A stretch of 64,000 bases of DNA from an uncultured Pseudomonadota bacterium. Lineage in GTDB: Bacteria > Myxococcota_A > Polyangia > Fen-1088. Location of the stretch: the NCBI GenBank assembly GCA_963847705.1, contig CAWKBC010000044.1, positions 1-64,000 on the forward strand. Reading direction: 5' to 3'. Of the stretch, positions 14,170 through 60,511 are shown piece by piece. The notes below the pieces were generated by a model. It was not told the origin of the DNA and searched no databases. It worked only from the letters and a program-made list of their open reading frames with translations. Numbering within the stretch: position 1 is the first letter of the stretch; each line of letters opens with the position of its first letter. The position numbers were made by a program, and so were the translations under genes.

Positions 14170-14190
14170 CGTGTTTGGACTTTCTGGTCC

Positions 14191-16831: not shown

Positions 16832-16885
16832 CTGTTTTGGCTTTCTGCTGGGCGGACCTCTGGGTTCTCGACGGCGCCGCGGGGA

Positions 16886-17971
<1,086 letters not shown>

Positions 17972-18099
17972 GGGCTGGTTCTCCTCGGGATTGCTTACGG
18001 AGAACAGGATGCGCACCTCTGCCTTCAGAGACCTTTCCCCACCATGTCATCTTTGTAATGTTGGGCGTTCTTACCCACCGACCTGAATCTCGACGCTCT

Positions 18100-19767: not shown

Positions 19768-19832
19768 GTGCCCCATGACCGCCGAACGCCAGAAGACAGC
19801 TTGGTCCCGGGTGCCAGCCGTGGGGACCCACC

Positions 19833-41135: not shown

Positions 41136-42383
41136 TCATCGTAACACGTCGGAAGCTTCGGATTTTCGAGCCGCACGCCTGCTCGCCCCGACGATCGCCG
41201 CCGACAGCGCGGCCAGCGCCAAGGCGATCGCGGCGGCGCCACCGAAGAGGGGGCGCAAACCGAGACCGGCGCGATCCCGGAGCGGGGCGATTCCGAACGC
41301 GGCCAGACCGTATCCGGCTTGATAGCAGGCGATGAGATGGCCGGGCGACGCGTCCTGGCGGCCGAGGCTGATGGTGAGGGGGAGCAGTGCCGAGCAGCCG
41401 AGGCCCGCCAGACCGAAGGCCGCCGTCCCCAGCGCCGGCGCCGAGGAGGGGATGAACGCGGTGACGACGAAGGCGAGCGCGATCACCCAGGGGAGCAGAC
41501 GAAAGGTGCTGGGCCCGGAGACCCAACGCTCGATGGCGGCGAAGAACACCCGACCTGCGGTGGCGGCTGCCCAGAACAGGGTGAGCGCGACCGCCGCCAG
41601 TCCGGCCGGGGCGTCGAGCACGCCCTTCATGTAGAGGATCGCCCAGTTTCCGTTGAGCGTCTCGACGATCCCGTAGCAGAGCGCGAAGGCCGCGAAGAGC
41701 CAGAACCGGCGGGAGAGACGGCCCGGTGATTCCGCTCTGCCGGCGTGGCGATCGGAGTCGCGCCTCTCGGCGCCGAGGGGGAGCGAGACGGTCCAGAGGA
41801 TGAGGGCCGCCAGCAAACCCCCGACGGTGAGCGGCAGCCCCCACCAGATCCCGAAACCGACGAAGAGCGCGACGAAGACCGGCGCCAGCGCGGTCCCCAG
41901 CCCGAGCAGGGCGTTGAGCGCCAGCACCGCCACGTCGACCCGGCGCGGGAACAGCGAGCCGGCCAGCGTGTTCACCACCGGGATCGTCAGCCCGAAGCCG
42001 ATCCCCATGAGGGCCGTGGCGCCGAGCAGACAGGCGAACGCCGCCGCATGGTTCCCCAGCACGAACCGACTGGAGACGAGCAGCGCCATCGACGCCACAT
42101 CGGCGCCGAGGCCCAGCAGGAGGACGCGCTTTTCCCCCCACCGACGCGCGAATCGGCCGCCCAGCAGCGCGGCGGTCACCGCCAGGACGGTCTGCGGCGC
42201 GAACATGACTCCGTACTCGCTGTTCGAGAGGCCGTGCGCGTGCGGGTCGGTGAACACACCGCTGGCCGCGGGGAAGGTGACCAGCGCCAGCCCCTGCAGG
42301 AGGCCAGCCGTGTAGACCGCGCCAACCTGCTTCCAGCTCGGGGCGCTCGCCGCGCGGCTGGCGCCGGCCTCCACGATCGTCAC
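41136..42383 (-). CDS. MFS transporter, copy 2
   Basis: Paralog of 21349-22596 (shared QVGAVY..GLLQGLALVTFPAAS and WAILYMKGV). Confidence 0.88.
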   Translation of the reverse strand: MTIVEAGASRAASAPSWKQVGAVYTAGLLQGLALVTFPAASGVFTDPHAHGLSNSEYGVMFAPQTVLAVTAALLGGRFARRWGEKRVLLLGLGADVASMALLVSSRFVLGNHAAAFACLLGATALMGIGFGLTIPVVNTLAGSLFPRRVDVAVLALNALLGLGTALAPVFVALFVGFGIWWGLPLTVGGLLAALILWTVSLPLGAERRDSDRHAGRAESPGRLSRRFWLFAAFALCYGIVETLNGNWAILYMKGVLDAPAGLAAVALTLFWAAATAGRVFFAAIERWVSGPSTFRLLPWVIALAFVVTAFIPSSAPALGTAAFGLAGLGCSALLPLTISLGRQDASPGHLIACYQAGYGLAAFGIAPLRDRAGLGLRPLFGGAAAIALALAALSAAIVGASRRAARKSEASDVLR

Positions 42384-42390
42384 CCGCGCG

Positions 42391-43941
42391 TCACCCCAGG
42401 CGCTGGCGCAGGTGGTCCCCGACGCGCAGCGCGTTCGCCATCGCGGTCAGCCCGGGGTTCACGGCGCCGATGCTGGGGAAGAAGCTGGTGTCGACGACAT
42501 AGAGGTTGTCGAGCTCGTGCGCCTTGCAGTTGACGTCCAGCACCGACGTCCTGGGATCGGTGCCGAAGCGCGCGGTGCCGGCCTGGTGCGCGACCGCCGC
42601 GATCTCCATCTCGTTCTTCAGGTAGAGGTTCCGGGGGACCAGGTGCTCCGGGTGCATGCCGAGGTGCCCCAGCATCGACTTGAGTTGATCGGCGAGCTGC
42701 TTGGTCGGGACCTCGTTGGTCTTGGTGTAGCTGAGGCGGATGCTGCCGTCGCTCTCCAGCGTGACCCGGTTCTCGGGCCGCGGCAGATCCTCGGTGCAGA
42801 GCCAGAAGTCGACCCCGTGCTTGGCCAGCATCTCCAGCGACCACAGTGGCGCCAGCTTGGCGATGTGCTTCTCGCCCCGGAACATCGGCGCCTGTGACTT
42901 GCCGACCATCGAGATGTTGCCCAGCGGGTAATCCGTGTTGGGTCCCTTGAAATAGAAGTCGTTCACGCCCAGCGTCTTCTGATAGCGGGTCGGGTTCGGT
43001 TCCCTCGAGACCGCCATGACGACCTGGTTGTTGTGGCACATGTAGTTGCGGCCCACCTGATCCGATCCGTTGGCGAGGCCGCGCGGGTGCTTGTCGCTCG
43101 CGGAGGCGAGCAGCAGGCGGGCCGAGTTCGAGGCGCCGCACGAGACCACCACGATCTGGCCCCGGTAGCTCTCGACGGCTCCGTCGTGCTCGACCTCCAC
43201 CTCGGTCACCGCGGTGCCGGCCGCGTTGGTCTTGAGCCGCGTCGCGCGCGCGTTGGTGAGCAGCGTGACGTTGGGGAACGTCAGCGCCGGTCGGACCGCG
43301 ATCACCTCGGCGTCGGACTTGGCGTGGACCAGGCAGGGGAACCCGTCGCACTCCGCGCAACGAACGCAGGTCGAGAACGGCATGTTGTTCTCGGTCAGCA
43401 TGATCCCGCAGGGGGCGTGAAACGGCTGGTAGCCGGCCCGCGCCAGATCGTCGTGGAGCTGCTGGATGCGCGGCTCGTGCGAGACCGCCGGGTGCGGATA
43501 GGGGCCGCTGGCGGGCGGATCGATCGGATCCTCGCCGCGCGCGCCATGAACCTGATAGAGGTTCTCCGCCCGCATGTAGTAGGGCTCCATGTCGGAGTAG
43601 GAGATCGGCCAGGCGGGCGAGACGCCGTCCTGGTGCCGGAGCTCCCCGAAGTCGCGCTCGCGCAGGCGGTAAAGCTGGGCGCCGTACATCTTGGTCGCGC
43701 CCCCCACGTGGTAGTAGACGCCGGGCTGAAACGGCTTGCCCTCCTTGGTGTACCAGATGTCCTTCGAGACGTAGCGGTTCTCGACGAACACGTTTTCGGC
43801 GTCCCAGTTTTCCTTCTCGCGTGGCAGCCATCCGCCGCGCTCCAGGATGAGGATACGCTTCCCGAACGGCGCCAGCTCGAGCGCCAGCGTGCCGCCCCCG
43901 GCGCCGGTGCCGATGATGATCACATCGAAGGACTCAGCCAC
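42391..43941 (-). CDS. GMC-family FAD oxidoreductase, copy 2
   Basis: Close paralog of 19833-21383; CVRCAECDGFPC; GTG start at 43941. Confidence 0.92.
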   Translation of the reverse strand: MAESFDVIIIGTGAGGGTLALELAPFGKRILILERGGWLPREKENWDAENVFVENRYVSKDIWYTKEGKPFQPGVYYHVGGATKMYGAQLYRLRERDFGELRHQDGVSPAWPISYSDMEPYYMRAENLYQVHGARGEDPIDPPASGPYPHPAVSHEPRIQQLHDDLARAGYQPFHAPCGIMLTENNMPFSTCVRCAECDGFPCLVHAKSDAEVIAVRPALTFPNVTLLTNARATRLKTNAAGTAVTEVEVEHDGAVESYRGQIVVVSCGASNSARLLLASASDKHPRGLANGSDQVGRNYMCHNNQVVMAVSREPNPTRYQKTLGVNDFYFKGPNTDYPLGNISMVGKSQAPMFRGEKHIAKLAPLWSLEMLAKHGVDFWLCTEDLPRPENRVTLESDGSIRLSYTKTNEVPTKQLADQLKSMLGHLGMHPEHLVPRNLYLKNEMEIAAVAHQAGTARFGTDPRTSVLDVNCKAHELDNLYVVDTSFFPSIGAVNPGLTAMANALRVGDHLRQRLG

Positions 43942-45102
43942 GGGCCCCTGCCCTCGCCGCCGCCGCGGCAGTCCCGGTGCCCGTGGTGGCGCCAATCGGG
44001 GTCCCGAAGCGGATGACGTTCTTGATGCCGCCGTGGCCGGGCGAAAGGATGTCGGTGATCTGCTCGGGGGCGAAGTGCCCGGTGATGAGCTCTCGCACCG
44101 GCCCGGGCCAGCGCGCGTTGAATTTCCCCAGATCGCGGATCGACGCCTCGAACGCCGGCGGTCCGGCGTTGACGGTCCCGTAGAGGAGCTGATTCTCCAG
44201 CACCAGATCGCGCATGATGTGCTCGGCGTCGAGGGAGACGGGGGTCTTGTGGCCCGGAACGCCGGTGAAGATGAAGACGCCGTTCTTGCCGATCGCCGGG
44301 AGGGCGGCGAAGGCCAGGGCCGCCGAGCCGGTGGCCTCGTAGATGAGATCGACGTTGCCGACCTGCTTGCCGAGGTCGCCCACGGGAAGCTTGCCCGACT
44401 CGAGGTAGCGGGCGCCGATCTTGTTGACCCAGGCGGCGCGGGGGCTGCTGGCGCTCTCGCGCGAGTAGATCCAGGTGTCGAACCCCCGCACCAGGAGCGC
44501 CAGCGCGCCCAGCAGGCCGACCGGCCCCGCGCCCAGCACCACCGCGTTCAGTCCCCGTTTCTCTTCTCGGGCAGGGTTGACCCAGGGCATGCGGACCAGC
44601 ACGGACTCCAGCTCGATGAGGGCCTTCTCCGCGATGGTGAGCGGCTCGGTGAGGACCGCGATGTCCGCGATCTCCCGCGGCACGAGGTGCATGTTGTCCG
44701 CCAGGTCGACCACCTCGTCGGTCATGAAGCCGTGCCGCCGCATGATGCCGCGCTCGGTGTAAGCGCCGGTCACGCAGAAGTCCGGCCGGTTGTGCTGGCA
44801 GGGGCGGCACTCCGGTTTGCCGCAGGGGCGGCGCACCGTGGTCACCACCAGATCGCCCGGCTTGAGGTTCGACACCGCGCTGCCGACCTCGACGACCTCG
44901 CCGAGCGACTCGTGGCCCATCACCAGGTACGGCTCACCGGGGGGCGGGGCGCCGTACTCGAAGCGGGCGATCTCGTGGTCGGTCCCGCACACGCCGACCT
45001 CCAGCATGCGGATCCGCGCCTGATCGTCCCCTTCCAGCCGGGGGACGGACGATCGACCAGCCGAATCTTCTTCTCGGTCGGGAACATGGCAATTGCACGC
45101 AT
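43934..45102 (-). pseudogene. Glucose 1-dehydrogenase-like protein, copy 2, with a one-base deletion in a homopolymer near 45040
   Basis: MRAIAMFPTEKKIRLVDRPSP joins RLEGDDQARIRMLEVGVCGTD if the G5 run at 45040-45044 is G6. Confidence 0.85.
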
Positions 45103-45147: not shown

Positions 45148-47163
45148 TTAAGCGGGGTGAGGCTTGAGACTTCGCCCGGCAACGACCGGGCCGACCACCC
45201 GCTCCTCGCGTTTGTGAAAGGCGGTCTCCTCGTGCGCGGCCAGGGCCACCAGAAAGCGCCCGTCGAGGAGCGCCGGAACGCGCTGGATCGCTTCGCCGAG
45301 CGCCTCCAGCCCCGCGAAGAACGGCAGGTCGGTCTTCTGCAAGTTGCGCTTGAGCCAATCGATGGGATCGCGCGCCTCGATCCAGTCCATCTCTTTCTTG
45401 TCGGCAAACAGCGCCCGCACCGGATCGGCGGTGGCGCTCACCGTCTGGATCAGACGTCCGTGGGCGAATCGTGGCGCGAGCTGCGCCGCCAGCTCCAGGC
45501 TCTGGCGACCGGGGCGCACCAGATTGTCCGGGTGCGCGACGATGAGGACCCGAGCGAAGTTGGCGACGTCGCCGTGCGCGATGACGGTCGGCACCGGCGA
45601 CCGCGCCAGCGCCTCGCTCTCCTCGCTGTCCGGCTGGATCCGGTCGCGCGCGTGCCATTCGTTGATCAGCAGCGTGGCCTTCTCGCCCAGGATCGTCTCC
45701 AGCAGACCCTCCGGAACGGTGGCGGCGACGCGAAACAACGTGCGCGATTCGAGCCCCTCCTTCGCCAGCCACTCCTCCGCCTCGGTGGTGAGACCACGCT
45801 GCGCGGCCTGCTCCGCCGGCGACGCCTCCGTGCGCGCGAAGCTGGCCGCCAGGACGATGCCCCCGTCGCTGGTGGCCAGCTTCCCGGCCAGGGCCAGCGC
45901 TGGTCGGGTCGAATCGCCCCAGACCGGGACCAGGACCGTCTTTCCCAGCGCCGCCGCCTCTTCGGTCACGGCGGTCACCCGCTTGCCGAAGTGGCTCACC
46001 AGCGCGGGGGTCACGACCAGCGACGCCAGGATGACCACCAACACCGCGTTGATCGTCTGCTTGTCGAACAGGCCCAGCTTGGCGCCGACCAGCGTGGTCG
46101 CCAGCGTGGCCGCCGCTTGTGAGCCGGAGAGGCCGGACATGACGCCCACCTCCGGCCAGGTGAAGTGGAAGGTCCGCCCGGCGATGACCGCGGCCAACGA
46201 CTTGCCGCCCAGGACCGCCACGGTGAAGATGAGCGCGATCCCCAGCGTCTTCGGATCGACCATCACCCTGGGCTCGAGCAGGATGCCGACCGAGACCAGG
46301 AAGATGGGGATGAAGAACGTGGAGCCCATGAACTGCAGCCGGTCCATGAGCGGGCTCTCTTCGGGGACCGCGCGATTGAGGCCGAGGCCCGCGAAGAAGG
46401 CGCCCACGATGCCGTCGATGCCGGCGGCCTCCGCCATGACCGCACCGACGAGAAACGCCGCGATGCCCAGGACGAACCGGTACGAGCGATCGGTCCCCAC
46501 GTGCGCGAAGAACCAGCGCGCCACGCGGGGCAAGGCGACCAGCGACCAGACGGCGAGCACCGCGAGACCGACGGCGATCCCCAGCAGCTGCAGGCCGAGC
46601 GCGCCGCCCGGCTTGACCGTCCCCGAGATCACCGACAACACCAGCAGGGCCGAGGTGTCCGTCACCGCGGTGGCGCCGACCACCGTCGCCACGGCGCGGT
46701 TGCGGGCCAGCCCCATCTGCCTGAGCAGCGGATAGGTGACCAGGGTGTGCGAGCCCCAGTTCGATCCCATCAGCACCGCCGCCGCCCAGTGGTAGTGGAG
46801 CAGCCGCGCGCTCACGATCCCGAGCGTGAAGGGGATGGCGAACGACAGCAGCGCGAAGGTGACGGCAGCCTTCTTCATCTTCATGAACAGCTTGAGGTCG
46901 AGCTCGAGGCCCGCGCTGAACATCAGATAGAGCAGGCCGAACTCACCGGTCGCCGAGAGCGCGATCTCCTTGGAGGCGAGGGCCCGCGTGCCATGCGGCC
47001 CCAGCGCCATTCCCGCCAGGACCAGGCCCACCATTGCGGGCAGCCGGAGGACCTCGGCGATCTTGGGCGCCAGAATCAGCGCCAGAACGAGGATCGCGTA
47101 CGCCAGGGTCGGACCGGCCGTGATCCGATGCAGGATGTCTTCGAGCAGGTCGACCGGATGAAT
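45148..47163 (-). CDS. CPA2 cation:proton antiporter with USP-like C-terminal domain (start uncertain)
   Basis: GLLYLMFSAGLELD, GATAVTD, GAFFAGL, GGK, many TM helices. AAGGAGG RBS precedes an in-frame ATT at 47163. Confidence 0.88.
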   Translation of the reverse strand: MHPVDLLEDILHRITAGPTLAYAILVLALILAPKIAEVLRLPAMVGLVLAGMALGPHGTRALASKEIALSATGEFGLLYLMFSAGLELDLKLFMKMKKAAVTFALLSFAIPFTLGIVSARLLHYHWAAAVLMGSNWGSHTLVTYPLLRQMGLARNRAVATVVGATAVTDTSALLVLSVISGTVKPGGALGLQLLGIAVGLAVLAVWSLVALPRVARWFFAHVGTDRSYRFVLGIAAFLVGAVMAEAAGIDGIVGAFFAGLGLNRAVPEESPLMDRLQFMGSTFFIPIFLVSVGILLEPRVMVDPKTLGIALIFTVAVLGGKSLAAVIAGRTFHFTWPEVGVMSGLSGSQAAATLATTLVGAKLGLFDKQTINAVLVVILASLVVTPALVSHFGKRVTAVTEEAAALGKTVLVPVWGDSTRPALALAGKLATSDGGIVLAASFARTEASPAEQAAQRGLTTEAEEWLAKEGLESRTLFRVAATVPEGLLETILGEKATLLINEWHARDRIQPDSEESEALARSPVPTVIAHGDVANFARVLIVAHPDNLVRPGRQSLELAAQLAPRFAHGRLIQTVSATADPVRALFADKKEMDWIEARDPIDWLKRNLQKTDLPFFAGLEALGEAIQRVPALLDGRFLVALAAHEETAFHKREERVVGPVVAGRSLKPHPA

Positions 47164-47325: not shown

Positions 47326-48750
47326 ATGCAGGCAGGCGCGGGCGACCTTTTGATCGGGGCGAGCAATCTGATCGCGGCGCGAAGTCAGATGGCCTTCACG
47401 CTGGGGTTCCACATCTTGCTGGTGCCGTTCGGCGTCTGCCTGCCGCTGTTCGCGCTCATCGCCAACGCTTACGGCCTCCGCCGCCAGGACGCGGCGGCGC
47501 TCCGGCTGGCGCGGCGCTGGTCCCACGCCATGGGGGTGACCTTCGCCGTCGGCGCGGTCACCGGGACGGTCCTCTCGTTCGAGCTCGGGGTCCTCTGGCC
47601 CGGGATGCTCGGTCGCTTCGGCGACGTGTTCGGGCTCCCCTTCGCCATCGAGGGGCTGGCCTTCTTTCTGGAGGCGATCTTCGTGGCGATCTACATCTTC
47701 GGGTGGGATCGGCTCCCGCCGCGCCTGCACCTCTGGCTCGGCGCTCCCCTCCCGCTGTTCGCGGCGCTGGGCGCCTTCTCCATCATCTCGGCGAACTCCT
47801 GGATGAACACGCCCCGCGGGTTTCAGCTCGACGCCGCGGGGAGACCCTTCGCCGTCGATCCCTGGGCCGCCATCTTCAACCCGGCGCTCCCGCACGAGCT
47901 CGCTCACTTCCTGCTGGCGGCGCTGCTCTGCGCCGGATTCGTCGTGGCCTCGATCTACGCGGTCGGCATGCTGAAGGGCCGTCGCGATCGCCTGCACCGG
48001 CTGGGGTTCCTCATCCCGTTCACGGTCGCCGCCGTCGCCACGCCGATGCAGATGATGGTGGGTGACCGCGCGGTCCGCGAGGTGGTCAAGCTGCAGCCGG
48101 TCAAGTTCGCCGCGATGGAGCTGCTCTCCCGGACCGCCACCCACGTCCCTGAGCGCCTGGGCGGACACATGAAGGACGGCGTTCCGACCGGCGGCCTGAA
48201 GGTGCCGGACCTGGCCTCGTTCCTCACTGGATTCCACGCCGACACCAGGATCGTCGGCCTCGACAGCGTGGCGCCCGCCGATCGCCCGCCCGCCACCATC
48301 GTCCACCTCTCCTTCGACGTGATGATCGCCGCCGCCAGCGGGCTGGCGCTGCTCTCGGTCTGGTTCGTCTTCGCCTGGTGGCGGCGGCGCGATCTCCCGG
48401 CGACGCCCTGGTTTCTGCGCGCCTGCGCGCTCGCGGGCGCGCTGTCGCTGGTGGCGATGGAGGCAGGGTGGATCACCACGGAGGTGGGACGCCAGCCCTG
48501 GGTGGTCTACGGTTTCCTGCGCACCGCGCAGGCGGTCACGCACGCCCGCGGCATCTGGGGGTCGTTCGCGGCCGTGGTCGCGATCTACGCGGTGGTCGGC
48601 ACCGGCCTGGTGCTGGTGCTGCGCGCCATGTCACGCCGCTGGCGCAAAGGGGAAGGCGACGCCCTGCCGGGGCCCTACGCGCCACGCGGTCCCATCGTTC
48701 TTCCCGCACAGGGCGCGGCCTCGGCGCTCGCCGCCAGGAGGTCGGCGTGA
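47326..48750 (+). CDS. cydA: Cytochrome bd quinol oxidase subunit I
   Basis: GFHILL (His), SFELG/AIEG/FFLE, ANSWMNTP, QPVKFAAME Q-loop motif, GWITTEVGRQPW. Confidence 0.95.
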   Translation: MQAGAGDLLIGASNLIAARSQMAFTLGFHILLVPFGVCLPLFALIANAYGLRRQDAAALRLARRWSHAMGVTFAVGAVTGTVLSFELGVLWPGMLGRFGDVFGLPFAIEGLAFFLEAIFVAIYIFGWDRLPPRLHLWLGAPLPLFAALGAFSIISANSWMNTPRGFQLDAAGRPFAVDPWAAIFNPALPHELAHFLLAALLCAGFVVASIYAVGMLKGRRDRLHRLGFLIPFTVAAVATPMQMMVGDRAVREVVKLQPVKFAAMELLSRTATHVPERLGGHMKDGVPTGGLKVPDLASFLTGFHADTRIVGLDSVAPADRPPATIVHLSFDVMIAAASGLALLSVWFVFAWWRRRDLPATPWFLRACALAGALSLVAMEAGWITTEVGRQPWVVYGFLRTAQAVTHARGIWGSFAAVVAIYAVVGTGLVLVLRAMSRRWRKGEGDALPGPYAPRGPIVLPAQGAASALAARRSA

Positions 48751-51068
48751 GCACCGTCGTCGCCTTGATTCTCTGGTTCGCCGTCACCAGCTACGCGGTC
48801 TTCGGCGGCGCCGACTACGGCGCCGGTTTCTGGGATCTGACGGCGGGCGGCGCCCGGCGCGGCGCCCCGGCGCGGGCACTCATCGATCACGCGATGGCGC
48901 CGGTCTGGGAGGCCAACAACGTCTGGCTGATCCTCGCGCTGGTGGTGCTCTGGACCGCGTTCCCCCGGGCCTTCGCCGCGATCATGTCGACGCTCTACCT
49001 GCCGATGGCCCTGGCGGCGGCCGGGATCGTGCTGCGCGGCTCGGGCTTCGTGTTTCGCGAGGCGACGCGCGCGCTGACCGGACGCCGCCTCTTCGGCGCC
49101 ACCTTCGCGCTGTCGTCGGTCGTCACGCCCTTCTTCCTCGGCGCGAGCTTCGGCGCGATCGCCTCGGGGCGGGTGCACGCCGCCGATGCGGTGGTCGATC
49201 CGATGGCGCGAATCGCCGGCTGGTGCGGCCCAACCTCGATCCTGGTCGGCGTGCTGGCGGTGTCGAGCGCGGCTTTTCTCGCAGCGGTCTTTCTCGTCTT
49301 CGACGCGCGGCGGGTGGACGAGACGCTGGACCGCGCCTTCAGGTGGCGGGCGGTGGGAAGCGGCCTCGTGACCGGCCTCATCGCCATCGTCGGGCTGTTC
49401 GTCATCCGCGGCGACGCGCCGTTTCTGTTTCATGGCCTGGTGCACGAGGGGCTCCCCTTCGTGCTGCTCTCCGGGGCTTGCGGCGGCGCGGTCGTCGTCC
49501 TGCTCACCCAGGGGATCACGCGCGGCACGCGGGCGCTGGCCGTCATGGCGGTGGTGAGCGTGCTGGCCGGGTGGGGCGTGGCGCAGTACCCCTACCTGCT
49601 GCCGACCTCTCTCACCCTGGAGGCGGCGGCGGGCGCGACCCGCTCGCTCGGCTGGCTGGTGGCCGTGTTCCTGCTCGCCTGCGTCACCGCCGTCCCGGCC
49701 CTGGCGCTGCTCTACGTTCTCGACCAGCGCAGCCGGCTGCAGCGTGGCTCGGCGGTCGAGGGAGAGAAACCCGGGAGCCGCCACCGGGTGGTGATCGTGG
49801 GCGGCGGCTTCGGCGGACTCTTCGCCACCCGCGCGCTCGGCTGGTCGCCGGTGGACGTCACCCTGGTCGACCGCGAGCCCCACCATCTGTTCCAGCCGCT
49901 GCTCTACCAGGTCGCGACCGGCATCCTCTCCGAGGGGGAGGTCGCCCCCTCGCTGCGGCACATCCTGCGCTTTCAAGAGAACGCCGCGGTGCTGCTGGCC
50001 GAGGTCACCGGCTTCGATCTCGAGCGTCGCGAGGTTCAAGCCCGTCGCCCCGACGGCGTCGCGATGGTGCTCCCCTACGACAGCCTGATCGTCGCGGCCG
50101 GCGCCGGGATGTCGTACTTCGGCCGCGACGAGCTGGCCGAGCACGCCCCCGGGATGAAGACGCTGGACGACGCGCTCCGGCTGCGGCGGCGCCTGCTGCA
50201 GTCGCTGGAGATGGCGGAGCTCAGCGAAGATCCCCACAGGCAAGAGGGGTGGCTGACGGTGGCCATCGTCGGCGCCGGCCCCACCGGCGTCGAGATCGCC
50301 GGCCAGGTCCGCGCGCTGGCCATGCGCGCCCTCGGCACCAGCTTCCGACGAATCGATCCCGCGCGGGTTCGCGTCCTGCTGCTCGACGCCGGTCACGAGC
50401 CGCTCAGTCAGTTCGGCGATCGGCTGTCGGAGATCGCCACGCGCGAGCTCGACACGATGGGCGTGGAGCTGCGGATGGGCGTCAGGGTCACGGCGGTCGA
50501 CGACGAGTCGGTCACCTTCGAGGGGCCAGGCGGTCCCGAGCGGATCGAGGCGCGCACCGTCATCTGGGCGGCCGGCGTCCAGGCCTCGCCGCTGGCGCGT
50601 CTGCTCGCGGAGGCGTCGGGCGCCGTCTGCGATCGGGCGGGCCGGGTGGAGACCCGGCCCGACTGCACCCTGCCGAAGCATCCAGAGGTCTTCGCCATCG
50701 GTGACATGACCAGCCTCGATCGGCTCCCCGGCGTCGCCGAGGTCGCCATGCAGGAGGGCCTTCACGCCGCCAGAGCCATCCGCCTGCGGGTGGCCGGAAA
50801 GCCGACCCACACGCCGTTCCGGTACCGGGACCTCGGCAGCATGGCGACGGTGGGGCGCTTTCGCGCGGTGGTCAGCCTCAAGGGCCTTCGGGTGGGCGGC
50901 CTGCTCGGCTGGCTGACCTGGGCGGTCATTCACCTCACCTTCCTCACCGGCTTCGCCAACCGCTTCGCCACCCTCTTCCACTGGGTACGCACCTTCCTCG
51001 GTCGCAGCCGCAGCCAGATCGCCTACAGCGCAAGGTTCACGAAGACGCGGCCGTCGGCTCCGCGCTGA
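48747..51068 (+). CDS. Fusion of cytochrome bd subunit II (CydB) and type II NADH dehydrogenase (NDH-2), 773 aa
   Basis: GTGA overlap with cydA and AGGAGG RBS. CydB motifs GGADYGAG, PVWEANNVWL, LRGSGF. Then in frame VVIVGGGFGG, FQPLLYQVATG, VGAGPTGVEIAG, WAAG, FAIGD, AEVAMQEG, YRDLGSMA. Confidence 0.92.
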   Translation: MSTVVALILWFAVTSYAVFGGADYGAGFWDLTAGGARRGAPARALIDHAMAPVWEANNVWLILALVVLWTAFPRAFAAIMSTLYLPMALAAAGIVLRGSGFVFREATRALTGRRLFGATFALSSVVTPFFLGASFGAIASGRVHAADAVVDPMARIAGWCGPTSILVGVLAVSSAAFLAAVFLVFDARRVDETLDRAFRWRAVGSGLVTGLIAIVGLFVIRGDAPFLFHGLVHEGLPFVLLSGACGGAVVVLLTQGITRGTRALAVMAVVSVLAGWGVAQYPYLLPTSLTLEAAAGATRSLGWLVAVFLLACVTAVPALALLYVLDQRSRLQRGSAVEGEKPGSRHRVVIVGGGFGGLFATRALGWSPVDVTLVDREPHHLFQPLLYQVATGILSEGEVAPSLRHILRFQENAAVLLAEVTGFDLERREVQARRPDGVAMVLPYDSLIVAAGAGMSYFGRDELAEHAPGMKTLDDALRLRRRLLQSLEMAELSEDPHRQEGWLTVAIVGAGPTGVEIAGQVRALAMRALGTSFRRIDPARVRVLLLDAGHEPLSQFGDRLSEIATRELDTMGVELRMGVRVTAVDDESVTFEGPGGPERIEARTVIWAAGVQASPLARLLAEASGAVCDRAGRVETRPDCTLPKHPEVFAIGDMTSLDRLPGVAEVAMQEGLHAARAIRLRVAGKPTHTPFRYRDLGSMATVGRFRAVVSLKGLRVGGLLGWLTWAVIHLTFLTGFANRFATLFHWVRTFLGRSRSQIAYSARFTKTRPSAPR

Positions 51069-52389: not shown

Positions 52390-53154
52390 ATGAGCCTCGG
52401 ACGTCGCAAGGTCGGTCTGGAAGAACAGTCGCGGTGGGTCTTCAACCGGATGGCGGCCTTCTACGCGGCCCGCCCGGCCTACCCCACTCCGCTGATCGAC
52501 GCGCTCGCCGAGCTGGCGGGTCCCGTCGGCAGCCGGATCGGCGATCTCGGCGCGGGGGTTGGCCACCTGGCGCTGCCGCTGGCGGAGCGGGGCCACCAGG
52601 TGGTGGCGATCGAGCCGGCCCAGGAGATGCTCGACCAGCTGCGGGCCGCGGCGGCGGAGAAGCGGCTCGCGCTGCGCGCGCTTCACGCCGCCGCCGAGGC
52701 GTTGCCGCTCGAGTCCGCCTCCCTCGATCTGGTGGTCATCGCGGACGCGCTTCACTTCCTGGACACCGAGCTCACCGCGCGGCAGATCGCGCGTGTGCTG
52801 GCGCCGGGGGGCGCGCTGGCGCTCGTCACCTGCGGGTTCGGGCAGACGCCGTTCATGCGCGGCGTGGTCCGGCTGATGGAGGAGGCTGCCCCGCGCCGAC
52901 CGCGCGCGCTGACCCAGTCGATCGTTCACCTCTCCGCGCTGTCGGGCGTGCCGCTGACGGACGAGCGCCGCTTTCACGACGAGACGCCGATCGACCACCC
53001 GACCCTGGAACGGATCCTGCGCTCGATCTCGTTCATCGGACCGGCGATGAACGTGGCGCGCTTCGCCGCCCTGCGCGAGCGCGTCCACGCGCTGCCGGAG
53101 GCGCCGTCCTGGGCGCGCACGTTCGTCCTCCGATCGGGGCGTCGCCGTGGCTAG
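52390..53154 (+). CDS. Class I SAM-dependent methyltransferase
   Basis: YAARPAYP, DLGAGVG, AIEP, AEALPL. Confidence 0.88.
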   Translation: MSLGRRKVGLEEQSRWVFNRMAAFYAARPAYPTPLIDALAELAGPVGSRIGDLGAGVGHLALPLAERGHQVVAIEPAQEMLDQLRAAAAEKRLALRALHAAAEALPLESASLDLVVIADALHFLDTELTARQIARVLAPGGALALVTCGFGQTPFMRGVVRLMEEAAPRRPRALTQSIVHLSALSGVPLTDERRFHDETPIDHPTLERILRSISFIGPAMNVARFAALRERVHALPEAPSWARTFVLRSGRRRG

Positions 53155-54455
53155 GTGGCGCTCGGGACAGCGTCCTTGGTGCCCGCTTCGCTTCGCAGGT
53201 GCTGGCGAGGCAGCGTGACCGTGAAGGTCGTGCCGTCCGCTTCGGACGACTGGCAGTCGACGGTCCCCTGGTGGGCGGCCACGATCTGGCCGACGATGAA
53301 GAGGCCCAGACCCAGTCCTTGACGCCCCCTCTCCGCCTGCTCACTCCCGCGCCGCATCGGCTGAAACAACACCGCGGCCGTCTCGGGTGGGATGGCCGGT
53401 CCCTGGTTGTGGACCTCGAGAAGGAGCGAGTCAGGGGTGCCGCCCGAGGAGACCCGGACCGATGTTCCCGGCGGACTGTAGCTGCTGGCGTTGCGCACCA
53501 GATTGGTGAGGACCTGGGCGAGACGGTCCGCGTCCCCCTCGCCCCGCCCATCGCCGGACTGCTCGAGCTGAATCTCGCGTCCGAGATGCGCCGCCTGGAG
53601 CTCGTCGACGATCTGCCGCGTCAAGGCGTGGAGATCGAGCGATTTCCTGTGGACCGGAATTCCACCTCCGATGCGGGCCTGGGTGAAATCGAGCAGGTCC
53701 CGAATCATCCGCTCGGCGCGACGGCCGGAGGAGACGATCCGAGCGGCCGTCTTGGTCTGCTTGTCGTTGAGGTCCCCGCGTTGGATGAGGACGGCGGCCG
53801 AGATGAGCATGGCGCTCAACGGATTGCGCAGGTCATGACTGACGATGCCGACGAGGTATTGCTCGAACTCGATCCGCTCCCGAAGGCTCCGATTCACCCG
53901 CGCCAGCTGCGCCTGATGGTCCTTGAGCTCGGCCAGCGCGCGAATCAACTCCTGGTTCTGCCGCCGAACCTCCTCGAACGGGCTCTCGAATCCGGGCCGG
54001 GAGAGCTCGGTTTCAATCAGGGTGAGCAGCTCGGGTGTGACTCTCGGCGCCTGCTCCGGCAGGAGCTTTCTCATCTCGACCGTCGTCCCGCGACCCATGG
54101 CGGTGTCGACCTGCAGGCCATCCATCAGTTTTTTCGAGCCGACCAGCCCCACGCCCAGGCCGGTCCGCGATCTGACCTGTCCGCCGAGGATGGCCGGCAG
54201 ATTGCCGATCCCGGGACCGCTGTCGCTCACCCGAACGAAGAACGCCGCGGGCGCCTCCGCCTCGACGCTGAACTGCACCCGCCCGCCGTGCGCATACTGA
54301 AAGGCATTGCGCGCCACCTCGGAGGCCGCGGTGGCGATGCGCGTTTGGTCCTGCAGGTCGAAGCCGAACAGCGTGGCCAGCTGCCGCGCCCGCTGGCGCA
54401 CCCGCACCACGTCCGGTTCGGCGCGAATCTCCAGACTGAGAAGCACCGGGCTCAT
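53151..54455 (-). CDS. Histidine kinase with N-terminal RsbT-like HATPase domain (stressosome output)
   Basis: ATAASEVARNAFQYA N-domain, coiled coil, VSHDLRNPL, NLVRNA, GLGLGL. Confidence 0.9.
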   Translation of the reverse strand: MSPVLLSLEIRAEPDVVRVRQRARQLATLFGFDLQDQTRIATAASEVARNAFQYAHGGRVQFSVEAEAPAAFFVRVSDSGPGIGNLPAILGGQVRSRTGLGVGLVGSKKLMDGLQVDTAMGRGTTVEMRKLLPEQAPRVTPELLTLIETELSRPGFESPFEEVRRQNQELIRALAELKDHQAQLARVNRSLRERIEFEQYLVGIVSHDLRNPLSAMLISAAVLIQRGDLNDKQTKTAARIVSSGRRAERMIRDLLDFTQARIGGGIPVHRKSLDLHALTRQIVDELQAAHLGREIQLEQSGDGRGEGDADRLAQVLTNLVRNASSYSPPGTSVRVSSGGTPDSLLLEVHNQGPAIPPETAAVLFQPMRRGSEQAERGRQGLGLGLFIVGQIVAAHQGTVDCQSSEADGTTFTVTLPRQHLRSEAGTKDAVPSAT

Positions 54456-55483
54456 CGCGCGCGCTCTCGGGCGACCACCACGACCACATCGTCCCGGCGC
54501 CGGACGAAGTCTCGGTAGAGAACGCCGGCGATCAGACTGGGGGTCTTTTGACTCAACCCCGGGTAGGAATCGAGCTCCCAGCTGTTCGAGAGCCCATCCG
54601 AATGCATCACCACGATCCCCCCGTCCGGCCAAGGATGGCCGAACTGCTGGATGTGCTCGATGGACTGCCCCGCGGTGCCGTTGTGAGAGACCAGGCTTCT
54701 GGAGCGCGCATGTGACGAGATCAGGGTCCCGGCGATGTTGCCGACTCCGGCGAAGTGGAGCTCCCGCCTTGCCCACTCGATCTCGGCGACGGCCGCCGCC
54801 GCGCCTCGCGTGCCCTGCAGAGCCACGTCGAGCGTGCGAAGAAGCGACTCCGGCCCTCCCCCCGCTTGCTCCCCGAAGGCCAGAAGGGCCTTGCCCGCGG
54901 CGGCAAAAGCGTGAGGGCCGTGCCCGAGCCCGTCCACCACCAGGATCGTGGAGAGGCCTCGACCGTCGCGCACCGCCCAGGCGTCGCCGCTCACCTCTTC
55001 CCCCTGCTTGGCCACGCAAACGGCGCCCCACTCGAGGACCGAGCCGGTCGAGCCCGCGGCGCCGTCGCCAATGCGCGCCAGGATCGCCGTGCCCTTTCCC
55101 GGCGCCGAGAAGACGTCGAAGGTCGTCGACAATCGCGCGATGGCACCGAGCCCCACGCCCCGCGAGCCTCCGGTGGAGAAGCCGTCCCGCATGCAGGCAC
55201 TAACGTTCGCCATACCGGGGCCCTGGTCGAGGGCCAGGAGCTCCAGACAACAAGCCGGGGACCTCGCCCCCCACGTGCGGAGGAGCAACTCGCCGCCGCC
55301 CCCATGCTGGACCAGGTTGGTCGAGGCCTCGGTGACGACCAGCGCCACGCGTTCCGCGTCTGTCTGACTGAAACCGATCGCCTCCGCGCGGGCGGTTGCC
55401 AGCCGACGGGCGGCGCCCACCCCGCTCAGCTCGAGAACGGGGATGGACGTGGAGAGGTAACTGGCCGGCAAGGTCACGCCCAT
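54452..55483 (-). CDS. HATPase + PPM/SpoIIE phosphatase (RsbX-like)
   Basis: EASTNLVQH, DQGPG, SGD, DGLGHG, HSDGL, DD. Confidence 0.88.
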   Translation of the reverse strand: MGVTLPASYLSTSIPVLELSGVGAARRLATARAEAIGFSQTDAERVALVVTEASTNLVQHGGGGELLLRTWGARSPACCLELLALDQGPGMANVSACMRDGFSTGGSRGVGLGAIARLSTTFDVFSAPGKGTAILARIGDGAAGSTGSVLEWGAVCVAKQGEEVSGDAWAVRDGRGLSTILVVDGLGHGPHAFAAAGKALLAFGEQAGGGPESLLRTLDVALQGTRGAAAAVAEIEWARRELHFAGVGNIAGTLISSHARSRSLVSHNGTAGQSIEHIQQFGHPWPDGGIVVMHSDGLSNSWELDSYPGLSQKTPSLIAGVLYRDFVRRRDDVVVVVARERAR

Positions 55484-55869
55484 TGCGTCACCACCACGCG
55501 CGTGCCCTCGCCGGGGCGCGAGTCGACCTCGAACTCGTTCACCAGGCGCCGGGCTCCACCAAACCCCAGGCCCAGGCCGCCCCCGGTGGTAAAGCCGTTC
55601 GTCAGCGCCTGCTCGACGTCGGCAATGCCAGGGCCCTCGTCTTCGAAGGTCAGCCGAAGCCCGCGCCGCTGGCGGTCGACCAGCGTCTCCATCCGGACAC
55701 TTCCGCCGCCGCCGTGGGTGAGAGCGTTGCGACCGAGCTCGCTGGCCGCCGTGACGAGCTTCGTCTGGTTCAAGCTGGAAAAGCCCAGCTCGGCCGCCCA
55801 CTCCCGCACCATCTGGCGAACGAGAAGGAGATCCTTCTCCTCGCGAATGGGCAACGTTTCACGCATCAC
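55474..55869 (-). CDS. rsbT: Stressosome kinase RsbT
   Basis: TAASELGRNAL, DEGPGI, GFTTGGGLGLG. Confidence 0.92.
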   Translation of the reverse strand: MMRETLPIREEKDLLLVRQMVREWAAELGFSSLNQTKLVTAASELGRNALTHGGGGSVRMETLVDRQRRGLRLTFEDEGPGIADVEQALTNGFTTGGGLGLGFGGARRLVNEFEVDSRPGEGTRVVVTQWA

Positions 55870-56245
55870 CTGACGCGTCCGGGCCTTCTCCCGACCTGGC
55901 GGCGCTCAGGAGCGCCATCCCTCGCTCCGCGTTGAGCGCTGTTCGGATGCCGGGCAGCGCGACCCCCATCTCCACCAGGGTCATGGCGACGGTGGGCCGC
56001 ATCCCGACCAGCACCGTGTCGGCGTCGAGGACCTGCGACATCTGCGCGATGTCTCCCATCACCCGGGCAATGTAGGAATCCACCGTGTCCAGCGCCGAGA
56101 TGTCGATGAGAACCCCGCGCGCTTTCGTCTCGGCCACGCGCTGGCAAACGTCGTCCTGGAGCGCGGTGGCGAGCCTGTCGTACATGTCCACCTGAATGGT
56201 GACCAGCAAGAACTCGCCCATGTGCAGGATGGGGATGCGTTCCAT
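55859..56245 (-). CDS. rsbS: Stressosome STAS protein RsbS
   Basis: IPIL, GVLIDISALDTVDSY (phosphoacceptor Ser), GMRPTVAMTLVEMG. Confidence 0.92.
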   Translation of the reverse strand: MERIPILHMGEFLLVTIQVDMYDRLATALQDDVCQRVAETKARGVLIDISALDTVDSYIARVMGDIAQMSQVLDADTVLVGMRPTVAMTLVEMGVALPGIRTALNAERGMALLSAARSGEGPDASGDA

Positions 56246-56254
56246 GCGGAGCCT

Positions 56255-57130
56255 CTACCCGTTGCCGCTCGGGCCCGAGATCGGTTTCACCGCCAGGGCT
56301 CGCTGCTTGAAGGCCACCGCCAGGGCGCCGGCCAGGGTGGATTTCGTGATGACGCCGGCCAGGTTCACGCCGAGGTGGACCATCGTCTGGGCGATTTGAG
56401 GGCGCACCCCAGAAATGATGCATTCGGCGCCCATCAAGCGCGTGGCGTTCACGGTCTTGAGAAGATTCTGGGCCGTCTGCGTGTCGACGGTGGGAACCCC
56501 GGTGATGTCGATGATGGCGAATTGCGCCTGCGTGTGGGCGATCCGCTCGAGCAGCGTCTCCATGACCAGCTGGGTGCGCTTGGAGTCGAGCGTGCCGATG
56601 ATGGGGAGGCCCAGAATGCCTTGCCACAGCTCCACCACCGGGGTCGACAGCTCGAACATCTCCTTCGCCTGCCGGCCGATGATGTCTTCGCGCGACTTGA
56701 TGAAGGCCTCGGTGGTGTAGAGGCCGAGCTTGTCGAGCAGCGCGGTGGCGCGCCACAGGTCCTCGGCGAGGCCGTCCAGGTCGTCGTGGCTCTGCCGCAG
56801 CCGCGTGAACAGCGGCTGTTTGAAGGAGAGGACGAAGGTGGCGGTCTCGGAGGAGGTGAAGCCCTGAATGGCCCGCGATCGACTCAGCTCATCGAGCATC
56901 TCGCGCAGAGGGGCCCACTGCGGCCCCTGGATGTGCATGAGGTCGTTGCCGCGCGCCGCGAGGCGAAGCAGCTCGAGGAACCGTCCAGACTGCTCGCGCA
57001 GGTCCCCCTCCTTCAAGAGGTCCGGCCGCGCCGTCGTGGCGGTCACCTGTTCTTCCATCCAGTCCGCCAGGATGCCGGCTTCCTGTTTCTCCAGGACCTC
57101 CGGAATCTTCGTCTTCACCTCAGTGGCCAT
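56255..57130 (-). CDS. rsbR: Stressosome protein RsbR (RsbRD_N-like + STAS)
   Basis: SRSRAIQGFTSSETA, ELSTPVV, GTLDS, DITGVPTVDT. Confidence 0.92.
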   Translation of the reverse strand: MATEVKTKIPEVLEKQEAGILADWMEEQVTATTARPDLLKEGDLREQSGRFLELLRLAARGNDLMHIQGPQWAPLREMLDELSRSRAIQGFTSSETATFVLSFKQPLFTRLRQSHDDLDGLAEDLWRATALLDKLGLYTTEAFIKSREDIIGRQAKEMFELSTPVVELWQGILGLPIIGTLDSKRTQLVMETLLERIAHTQAQFAIIDITGVPTVDTQTAQNLLKTVNATRLMGAECIISGVRPQIAQTMVHLGVNLAGVITKSTLAGALAVAFKQRALAVKPISGPSGNG

Positions 57131-59132: not shown

Positions 59133-59168
59133 GCACCGCACGCGCGAAGGGCCTCTCGCGTGCGGTGC
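59133..59168. terminator. 12-bp perfect hairpin after the ASST gene
   Basis: GCACCGCACGCG-N12-CGCGTGCGGTGC; no U-tract. Confidence 0.4.
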
Positions 59169-59269
59169 GCCGGCTTCACGACGAGCCGGCGATCGTCGGC
59201 GATAATGAGGCGTGTCTGACCCAAAAACGTGGCGTCTCGAAACCTGTTCGCAACAAGCGGAGCGATAGC

Positions 59270-60490
59270 GTGGCCGAGGACGGAGGCCCCATCGGTTCCT
59301 GGCAGACACTGGTCATCAACTCGGGCAGCTCGTCGCTGAAGTTCGCGCTCATCGAGGCGGGCTCGGGACGGGTCAGCCAGCAGGGGTTGGCGGAGCGACT
59401 CGGCACGCAGATGGCCCGTCTCCGCACGCACGGTCGCGACGGCGAGGGCGGTGAAACCGACGCGGAGAAGGCGCTCCCCGGGGCCGGGCACGCCGAGGCG
59501 CTGGAGGAGATCCTGGCGCAGCTCGGCAGCCGGCGACCGGACGCCGTCGGCCACCGGGTGGTCCACGGAGGGGAGACCTTCTCGCAGAGCGTGGTGCTCG
59601 ACGACGAGGTCGTGGAACGAATTCGCGCCTGCAACGATCTGGCGCCGCTGCACAACCCCGCCAACCTGCTGGGGATCGAGATCGCGCGCCGCCGATTTCC
59701 CACGCTGAAGCAGGTGGCGGTCTTCGACACCGCGTTTCACCAGACGTTGCCGCCCAGGGCCTTCATGTACGCCGTCCCCTACGAGCTGTACGAGCGCCAT
59801 CGCGTCCGCCGCTACGGATTCCACGGGACCAGCCACGCCTTCGTGGCGGGGGAGGCGGCGCAGCGGCTCGGCAAGCCGCTCGAGGAGCTCCAGCTGGTCA
59901 CCGCGCACCTGGGCAACGGCTGCAGCGCCTGCGCGATCAAGGGCGGACGCAGCGTCGACACCACCATGGGGCTCACGCCGCTGGAAGGGCTGGTGATGGG
60001 CAGCCGCAGCGGCGACGTCGACCCGAACCTGCATCAGTTCCTGGCCGACCAGACCGGCCAATCGCTCGCTCAGATCACCGATCTGCTCAACCGGGAGAGC
60101 GGCCTCTTGGGGCTCTCCGGGACCAGCAACGACATGCGCACCCTGCTGGACGCGCGCGGCCGCGGCGACGCGCGCGCCGCCCTGGCCATCGACGTCTTCT
60201 GTTATCGGCTGGCCAAGTCGCTGCTCGGGCTCTGCGCGGCGCTCGAACGGATCGACGCGCTGGTGTTCACGGGCGGCATCGGCGAGCACGCGGCGGCGAT
60301 CCGCGCCGAGACGCTGGCGCAGCTGCGCCTCCTCGGCCCGCTCGTCGACCCCGCGCGCAACGCCGCGCACGGCGCGGCGACCGCCGGCCGCATCACCGCC
60401 GATGGCTCGCCGCTGCTCTCGCTGGTGATTCCCACCAACGAAGAGCTGGTGATCGCCCGCGAGACCGCCCGCCTCCTCGATCACCCCTGA
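59270..60490 (+). CDS. ackA: Acetate kinase
   Basis: LVINSGSSSLK, GHRVVHGG, APLHN, FDTAFH, HLGNG, FTGGIGE, IPTNEE. Confidence 0.96.
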   Translation: MAEDGGPIGSWQTLVINSGSSSLKFALIEAGSGRVSQQGLAERLGTQMARLRTHGRDGEGGETDAEKALPGAGHAEALEEILAQLGSRRPDAVGHRVVHGGETFSQSVVLDDEVVERIRACNDLAPLHNPANLLGIEIARRRFPTLKQVAVFDTAFHQTLPPRAFMYAVPYELYERHRVRRYGFHGTSHAFVAGEAAQRLGKPLEELQLVTAHLGNGCSACAIKGGRSVDTTMGLTPLEGLVMGSRSGDVDPNLHQFLADQTGQSLAQITDLLNRESGLLGLSGTSNDMRTLLDARGRGDARAALAIDVFCYRLAKSLLGLCAALERIDALVFTGGIGEHAAAIRAETLAQLRLLGPLVDPARNAAHGAATAGRITADGSPLLSLVIPTNEELVIARETARLLDHP

Positions 60491-60511
60491 TTGCGCCCAG
60501 GAGCCTTCGCC

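Follow-up and report, generated by a model that had tools for sequence, protein, structure and literature searches.

The 64,000-nucleotide stretch of DNA considered here (the window: positions 1 to 64,000 of contig CAWKBC010000044.1, assembly GCA_963847705.1, from an uncultured bacterium of the Polyangia) carries a gene in which CydB, a subunit of cytochrome bd oxidase, continues in frame into an NADH dehydrogenase of type II (NDH-2). All positions given below are those of this stretch, and residues of the fusion are numbered along its 773 amino acids. The gene lies on the forward strand at 48747..51068, immediately behind cydA (47326..48750, same strand, 474 aa), which encodes a cytochrome bd subunit I (PF01654) assigned below to the qOR-2 type. 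Translation proceeds from a GTG at 48747 to the TGA at 51068 through 773 residues with zero internal stops, and the start codon overlaps the stop codon of cydA in a GTGA at 48747-48750, the coupling that an earlier annotation made from the letters alone (the sequence-only reading) had described. Matches to Pfam place Cyt_bd_oxida_II at residues 1-324 (profile positions 1-300 of 302), Pyr_redox_2 at 347-671 and NDH2_C at 696-751; the product accordingly comprises a complete CydB (residues 1-324), a linker of approximately 20 residues and a complete NDH-2 (residues 346-751). The corresponding forward-strand segments are 48747..49730 for the AppB-like CydB domain, 49731..49781 for the linker and 49782..51068 for the NDH-2 domain.

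Integrity of the fusion

The absence of a stop, and of a ribosome-binding site with ATG, at the junction had been claimed from the sequence alone, and both observations were borne out. Downstream of position 49600 the frame contains five GTG codons (49659, 49665, 49788, 49791 and 49797), the last three of which fall within the first strand of the NDH-2 fold; the junction contains zero ATG codons, and no clear AGGAG was seen by eye 5-10 nt upstream of any in-frame GTG past 49600. The GC content of third codon positions is even across the junction (0.93 in CydB, 0.87 in the linker and 0.91 in NDH-2).

The same architecture was recovered repeatedly from independent genomes, such that relatives of this gene are not always encoded separately. 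A search with the CydB half against proteins of 425-1353 residues returned 265 matches, the best 120 of which were examined; both halves are present in 111 of those 120 and are near full length in 101 (with CydB identities of 53-93%), while the other nine correspond to CydB alone or to CydA-CydB joins. Contigs assembled from other metagenomes likewise cross the junction without gaps: among the pieces listed, two such pieces were found in run X2 and one in run X3, and none of those listed for runs X1 and X6 extends over it. The junction is also open in all ten Acidimicrobiia loci that were read. Ratios of nonsynonymous to synonymous substitution (dN/dS), calculated against five relatives, are 0.13-0.30 in both halves and 0.22-0.58 in the linker, and a sixth, distant pair that is near saturation gave 0.57, 0.33 and 0.43; by these ratios, both halves appear to be intact and under purifying selection. 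The fusion is real: it is a single polypeptide frame and not an assembly error.

The oxidase subunits

The solved structure that best matches each oxidase component is that of the Mycobacterium smegmatis bd-II enzyme (9R2G_A for CydA, at 427 bits; 9R2G_D for the CydB half, at 271 bits). The ligand and catalytic residues of CydA are present (H29, E109, F113, E116, H194, K260, E265, M333, W382 and E386, together with the qOR-2 marker M22) and are kept in every CydA of a fused locus that covers them (13 or 14 of 14). They include the ligands of heme b558 (H194 and M333), heme b595 (E386) and heme d (H29 and E109), as well as the quinol-site residues K260 and E265 of the Q-loop (K252 and E257 in Escherichia coli), which are found in 14 of 14. 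Six residues separate the channel glutamates E109 and E116, a spacing that agrees with the definition of Murali et al. (10.1101/2021.01.16.426971); M22 occupies the position of M26, the Q-loop is short, and the alignment to 9R2G_A extends over the full length. CydA and CydB are classified as a cytochrome bd of the qOR-2 type.

Within the CydB half, D23, E55, W60, R189 and W276 show no variation among the 77 aligned fusions. Of the AppB residues described as unique to qOR-2 (D32, H60, D184 and W275; PMC12994193, in the portion available), three are kept as D30, D186 and W276, and H60 is replaced by asparagine, a substitution shared by 66 of the 77 fusions and, among the 142 unfused CydBs compared, by 24. 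The departures from the M. smegmatis enzyme are asparagine for H60 and glutamate for K107 in the B subunit, and phenylalanine for Y129 in the C subunit. Of the conserved qOR-2/qOR-3 tyrosine pair in CydA, Y123 is kept. Among the 15 aligned rows that come from fused loci, in which the window appears two times, 12 have phenylalanine at position 125, as do 20 of the 34 remaining rows; this second position therefore appears to vary within the sub-branch of CydA to which the fused loci belong.

Nine transmembrane helices are predicted for the CydB domain. In the available text of PMC12994193, H50, D184 and R187 are located at the cytoplasmic face of AppB; these correspond to H48, D186 and R189 of the fusion, which follow helices 1 and 5, and the loops after the odd-numbered helices are rich in arginine. 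Because H48, D186 and R189 follow those two helices, helix 9 is expected to end in the cytoplasm, where NDH-2 works. The cytoplasmic carboxy terminus that the sequence-only reading relied upon is thereby upheld, and a periplasmic one was not predicted. Only three of 330 CydB columns (G100, W303 and R330) are common to all three fused groups and occur in less than 60% of unfused CydBs; W303 is found in 22% and R330 in 32% of the latter.

The dehydrogenase half and the linker

The NDH-2 half most closely matches the mycobacterial NDH-2 structure 9MQY, at 441 bits. It contains two Rossmann folds, and the motifs that had been noted as signs of two complete halves are all in place: GxGxxG at G352 and again at G509, WAAG at W607, and AxxAxQ at residues 664-669. 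Each of the 77 aligned fusions carries the glycine motifs unchanged. An acidic residue where the second strand of the NAD(P)H fold ends corresponds to a preference for NADH, and this position (D547) is aspartate in 66 and glutamate in 11 of the 77. The second place of the quinone motif is occupied by glutamate rather than by the first glutamine; the possibility that this glutamate is an adaptation to fusion was rejected, since the same quinone motif is found in 43 of 74 unfused NDH-2 proteins.

The linker, counted from D326 to V348, varies from 19 to 32 residues among the 77 fusions and is variable in sequence. An AlphaFold2 model built with those aligned fusions has a mean predicted local distance difference test score (pLDDT) of 79.8 and a predicted template modelling score (pTM) of 0.54, with pLDDT below 50 at residues 329-342, and its two parts resemble 9r2g_D and 9mqy_A with TM-scores of 0.92 and 0.85, respectively; the linker is accordingly predicted to be flexible. 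Membrane helices are predicted near the carboxy terminus of NDH-2 at 718-733 and 736-750, the latter with low confidence. The mycobacterial enzyme, in the available text of 10.1101/2025.01.08.631920, is stabilised as a dimer by its helix 430-457. The match to that protein stops at residue 763 (equivalent to its residue 431), 10 residues before the end of the fusion, such that the dimer helix is mostly absent, and the short tail is general, with a median of 22 residues in fused proteins (108 rows) versus 45 in unfused ones (74 rows). The suggestion that dimerisation of NDH-2 might also dimerise the oxidase is weakened by this absence.

NDH-2 is also found behind other membrane domains. Among 31 proteins selected for their uncommon length, 11 are DoxX-NDH-2 fusions (P0259, P0266, P0269, P0280, P0285, P0291, P0293, P0305, P0315, P0340 and P0349), which look like a family of their own, two join a Na/Ca exchanger to NDH-2 (P0274 and P0308) and one joins FTR1 to NDH-2 (P0364); these fusions are spread over different 50% clusters. 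P0365, in which a qOR-2 CydB is fused to a TspO/MBR domain, is a single case that could be an artefact.

Distribution and origins

Within the order of the host, the fusion is intact in nine of 89 genomes, all of them among the 26 of the host genus (one of which has two copies), and frameshifted pieces of it occur in two more of the 89; a search of 400 further genomes sampled from the host phylum did not recover it. Among homologs with names, the nearest bear the label Polyangia. In one family of Acidimicrobiia, 26 genomes were searched with a query spanning the junction and 10 of them matched (leaving out the unpublished genome G766 gives 9 of 25); across the sampled class, a match over the junction was obtained in only two of 401 (one without G766). 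These searches overlap with the collection of 79 loci described below, and the counts are not additive. A metagenome scan for the Chloroflexota form returned fragments only, none of which contained the junction.

A tree of CydB, calculated by a quick method from 98 representatives at 80% identity (with one short row dropped), divides the fused proteins into one main clade, with a support of 99, and one of Chloroflexota-named proteins, with a support of 100; both also include unfused members. A tree of NDH-2 (58 representatives) required three changes, and an approximately unbiased (AU) test rejected a single clade of all fused rows (p=0.0013); a single origin of the Acidimicrobiia and Polyangia-like fusions was not rejected (p=0.143). 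The AU rejection and the two CydB clades together argue for at least two origins, which on the trees would comprise one fusion event in the Chloroflexota-named proteins and one common to the Acidimicrobiia and Polyangia-like genomes. A third origin was considered and is not shown, given the p=0.143 obtained for the main group as one; P0328 was also considered as a further origin and was rejected, since it aligned over most of the query yet had no CydB match in Pfam. On starred branches, actinobacterial NDH-2 proteins surround the NDH-2 of the main group, with the two other NDH-2 proteins of the host lying outside, and the fusion in the Polyangia-like genomes was likely acquired from Actinomycetota.

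Unfused CydBs are nested within the main fused clade, and those designated P0123, P0127, P0130, P0134-P0136, P0139 and P0141-P0147 carry tails of 30-45 residues that end in Trp-Trp. The possibility that these tails are left over from the linker or from the carboxy terminus of NDH-2 is unsupported, the best profile E-values among 32 tails being 0.065 and 0.068. In the Chloroflexota type, the unfused CydBs P0077, P0081 and P0182 end one residue past the point at which the fused form (P0083) continues with a methionine, as would be expected from a small frameshift at an overlapping stop and start.

The surrounding sugar-oxidation cluster

Four genes on the reverse strand, beginning divergently from cydA, form the immediate neighbourhood, a cluster that the sequence-only reading had overlooked. 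The nearest encodes a CPA2-type cation/H+ antiporter (45148..47154; PF00999, with TIGR00932 below its cut-off; start uncertain), and is followed by a zinc-dependent, archaeal-type medium-chain dehydrogenase/reductase (MDR) resembling glucose dehydrogenase (43934..45076; Glu_dehyd_C and ADH_N; start uncertain), all six solved matches of which are glucose dehydrogenases. Beyond it lie a GMC oxidoreductase similar to the FAD-dependent catalytic subunits of glucose and fructose dehydrogenases (42391..43941; matching 6A2U_B, 8HDD and fructose dehydrogenase) and a major facilitator superfamily (MFS) transporter recognised by Pfam (41136..42383). A second trio of glucose dehydrogenase, GMC and MFS genes occurs at 18688-22593 on the forward strand, without cyd genes, and its enzymes are 55% and 81% identical to those of the first copy.

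In a collection of 79 loci, 11 were counted as fused (three of them with frameshifts, including L010, which has a break near the junction) and 68 as unfused. The 11 fused loci contain the GMC gene in 10 cases, a glucose dehydrogenase in nine (six MDR-type and three of the short-chain, SDR, type), the antiporter in five, the transporter in five and a trehalase-like hydrolase of family GH15 in three. Genes for qOR-2 oxidases lie within 6 kb of an unfused ndh in 29 of the 68 unfused loci, in the order ndh-cydA-cydB, divergently, or a few genes apart. Dehydrogenases of the SDR type (19 loci), Zwf (29) and the MDR type (6) are mutually exclusive and together account for 54 of the 79; the occurrence of three different producers of NAD(P)H in one slot argues for a pathway. 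This clade of NDH-2, whether fused or unfused, sits in a sugar-oxidation cluster composed of GH15, GMC and one of three glucose or glucose-6-phosphate dehydrogenases. One locus (L117:101-4006) has the same gene order in unfused form, cydA-cydB-ndh, with a different CydA (33% identical) and another type of cytochrome bd.

A palindromic box resembling the MalT site published for Actinoplanes (PMC7567727, available in part) occurs 37 times in 22 of the 79 loci, compared to 0-2 times in 20 simulated sets, the tight pattern having been picked after looser hits. In actinobacterial loci, such boxes are located upstream of the operons of the cluster and frequently come as pairs (for example, L005:2059-2107 and L006:2076-2121); they are absent from the six Polyangia-like loci, from the window and from the host genome. 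The MalT region of Actinoplanes was considered as an instance of the same cluster and set aside, the terms 'cytochrome', 'NADH' and 'glucose-6-phosphate' being absent from the main text of that source. Neither a sigma-70 promoter nor a convincing terminator was found at the locus, and no SigF/SigB-like pattern was found upstream of cydA or of the glucose dehydrogenase gene. No RNA data set was listed as containing the locus.

Elsewhere in the window, a stressosome-like operon (53154-57130, reverse strand) located 2 kb from the fusion encodes RsbRD/STAS, STAS, an RsbT-like kinase, HATPase-SpoIIE and a histidine kinase. The reverse strand also carries a cyclic nucleotide (cNMP)-binding domain fused to a thioredoxin-reductase-like domain (34443-36086), a MoxR-DUF58-vWA operon of the Bat, or aerotolerance, type (9534-18016) and, at the contig start, a NikA-like mobilisation protein (127-603) followed by genes without a Pfam match, possibly the edge of a mobile element; an acetate kinase and phosphotransacetylase pair lies on the forward strand at 59165-62623.

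Host respiratory background

Besides this locus, the host genome has genes for complex I, for three heme-copper oxidase subunits, for two further cydAB pairs and for two further NDH-2 proteins, which argues that the pairing of CydB with NDH-2 serves an accessory branch. Two Mqn-type (futalosine) genes for menaquinone synthesis are present, and no match to MenA in the host exceeded the cut-off. In M. smegmatis, the bd-II genes are up-regulated at low oxygen and down-regulated in a sigF mutant, according to the available portions of PMC12994193 and PMC4694148, respectively; by analogy, this behaviour would fit a role in stress or stationary phase.

Proposed mechanism and alternative readings

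The interpretation that appears probable is that the fusion and CydA together constitute a qOR-2 cytochrome bd to which an NADH dehydrogenase of its own is flexibly tethered on the cytoplasmic side, serving as an accessory branch of the sugar-oxidation cluster. Oxidation of sugar by the neighbouring glucose dehydrogenase would be the likely source of NADH; electrons would then pass via FAD to menaquinone at the cytoplasmic leaflet, the resulting quinol would enter the membrane pool and from there reach CydA at its Q-loop site on the periplasmic side, and the oxidase would transfer the electrons from heme b558 to b595, to d and to oxygen. The tether itself would provide for 1:1 co-expression, hold the two enzymes in one location and anchor NDH-2 to the membrane. 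A cytochrome bd combined with NDH-2 separates approximately two charges per electron pair, conserving little energy while offering a high affinity for oxygen, compared to about ten charges for the main chain of the host. With NADH likely supplied by the neighbouring glucose dehydrogenase, the cluster would represent a fast, low-yield, high-oxygen-affinity branch from sugar to oxygen for use under stress, at low oxygen or in stationary phase.

The sequence-only reading had instead proposed a hard-wired supercomplex and a self-contained chain from NADH to oxygen. The first proposal is not supported: the Q-loop site is periplasmic (PMC12994193, in the text available) and NDH-2 reduces quinone on the opposite face, the Q-loop is kept, the linker is variable in length and poorly ordered in the model, and few columns are specific to fused proteins, all of which argue against a rigid complex, such that a flexible tether acting via the menaquinone pool is most likely. 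The second proposal holds for the proteins but not for the chain as a whole, which needs a quinone pool and hemes and operates in a host that has complex I, other oxidases and other NDH-2 proteins.

Several points weigh against the interpretation of an accessory sugar-oxidising branch. That unfused CydBs fall inside the main fused clade indicates that the tether is dispensable, and the occurrence of NDH-2 behind DoxX, Na/Ca-exchanger and FTR1 domains indicates that its partnership with CydB may not be special. In the host genome, which is 85% complete, no CydD passed the cut-off (the best candidate reached 289 of 435 bits), a result that bears on the supply of heme d. The 79 loci are related, were cut at 6 kb and were chosen by similarity; GH15 was not found in the cluster of the window, the substrates of the glucose dehydrogenase, GMC and GH15 proteins are assigned provisionally from their families, and Zwf usually produces NADPH, a cofactor less suited to an NADH-type NDH-2. 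The direction of transfer from Actinomycetota, in turn, is read from a midpoint-rooted tree under similarity-biased sampling (35 of 64 collection parts scanned).

The alternatives to this accessory tethered branch differ in what they make of the junction. Joining of two genes by an assembly or sequencing error is so improbable as to be negligible: indel errors do occur in such data, as indicated by frameshifts elsewhere in the genes of related assemblies (L005, L007 and L010), but the fused homologs, the contigs from two other runs and the open Acidimicrobiia junctions stand against it. Production of two ordinary proteins, either by cleavage of the linker or from an internal start of NDH-2, is very unlikely; a linker predicted to be disordered would be exposed to proteases, but the junction lacks an ATG or clear ribosome-binding site and the second half of the linker has no sequence in common between groups. 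A more serious competitor, though still an unlikely one, is simple read-through, in which a co-transcribed cydB and ndh lost the intervening stop and the product acts as two free enzymes with no gain beyond that of an operon. Such an origin would account for the resemblance of the linker to a native CydB tail followed by a native NDH-2 amino terminus, for the point at which the Chloroflexota-type unfused proteins end when compared with the fused ones that run on into methionine, for the unfused CydBs nested among fused ones, for the mere three columns shared by all fused groups, and for the many amino-terminal partners that NDH-2 takes. It accounts less readily for two or more separate fusion events that joined the same partner in the same order, for retention of the fusion across 53-93% CydB identity among the listed homologs, for a linker dN/dS below 1, and for the shorter tails of fused NDH-2, which appear as if an anchor had replaced the dimer helix.

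A docked complex, in which NDH-2 would sit on CydB and hand quinol over directly, possibly through a private quinone corresponding to the menaquinone MQ3 at CydB helix 9, is judged improbable. In the M. smegmatis enzyme, MQ3 lies between AppB helices 1, 2 and 9 and AppC helix 4, with its tail wrapped around AppB helix 9 and a distance of 7.3 A between its head and heme d (PMC12994193, in the text available), and that helix is the point of fusion; the residues lining MQ3 are largely kept, and W303 and R330 occur in all three fused groups while being found in a minority of unfused CydBs. Against this, MQ3 is described in the same text as structural and occurs there in an unfused enzyme, its residues are not specific to fusions, the periplasmic Q-loop site is intact, and the linker varies and is modelled with low confidence, at a whole-chain pTM of 0.54. 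A stronger form, to which only a slim chance is assigned, would be a single-complex NADH oxidase in which NDH-2 reduces the helix-9 menaquinone beside heme d, bypassing the pool and possibly the Q-loop; if true, that oxidase and the glucose dehydrogenase would together act as an oxygen scavenger devoted to burning sugar, one that arose two or more times in evolution.

Comparison with known systems

The gene described here is a real, conserved and repeatedly evolved fusion of two known enzymes. In the full-text literature searched, which excludes supplements and most subscription journals, no description of a CydB-NDH-2 fusion was found; the words 'fused' and 'fusion' occur 0 times in the available text of 10.1101/2021.01.16.426971, and the supplements of surveys of qOR and NDH-2 proteins may list the architecture. 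It is on record in databases, since some matches are labelled with both functions by JGI. The fusion is a naturally occurring covalent connection of a respiratory chain's first enzyme to its last, for which no description was found, and it offers a two-gene module from NADH to oxygen for minimal respiratory chains and for oxygen scavenging, and the presence of fused and split versions among close relatives allows a clean test of the effect of tethering on flux or on a private quinone pool. It also points to a widespread soil-bacterial cluster that ties the release and oxidation of glucose to a qOR-2 oxidase, a class with barely known physiology.

The best solved match of the oxidase, the M. 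smegmatis bd-II enzyme (AppCB, 9R2G; PMC12994193, in the text available), shares its heme ligands, the six-residue glutamate spacing, Met22, F113, the short Q-loop and most residues of the proton path. The mycobacterial AppB, however, ends after helix 9 and is unfused, in contrast to the CydB described here, which is fused in a host with no CydD over the cut-off. The mycobacterial NDH-2 (9MQY and 9MQZ) is 52% identical in the fold match, at a TM-score of 0.85, with the same Rossmann motifs and acidic NADH-site residue. That enzyme is free and active as a dimer via helix 430-457 (10.1101/2025.01.08.631920, in the text available), whereas the present one is fused to CydB with that helix mostly absent; its quinone motif also has a glutamate, shared with unfused relatives of the clade, where the mycobacterial NDH-2 has the first glutamine.

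Two other types of association between respiratory proteins bear comparison. In the Ndh-Ncp/YjlC systems of Bacillota (PMC13524794 and PMC13433803, in the portions available), NDH-2 is likewise bound to a second protein that influences how it reaches quinone, but these are separate gene products that form filaments, and the partner, unlike CydB, is not part of a terminal oxidase; the terms 'fused', 'fusion', 'cytochrome bd' and 'cydB' are absent from the main text of PMC13524794. The actinobacterial CIII2CIV2 supercomplex likewise holds two consecutive respiratory enzymes together. An engineered bc1-cbb3 fusion is reportedly a covalent respiratory supercomplex that joins complexes III and IV. 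Both of these unite complexes III and IV with protein-bound carriers, whereas the fusion at this locus joins a primary dehydrogenase to a quinol oxidase, with their quinone sites on opposite sides of the membrane.

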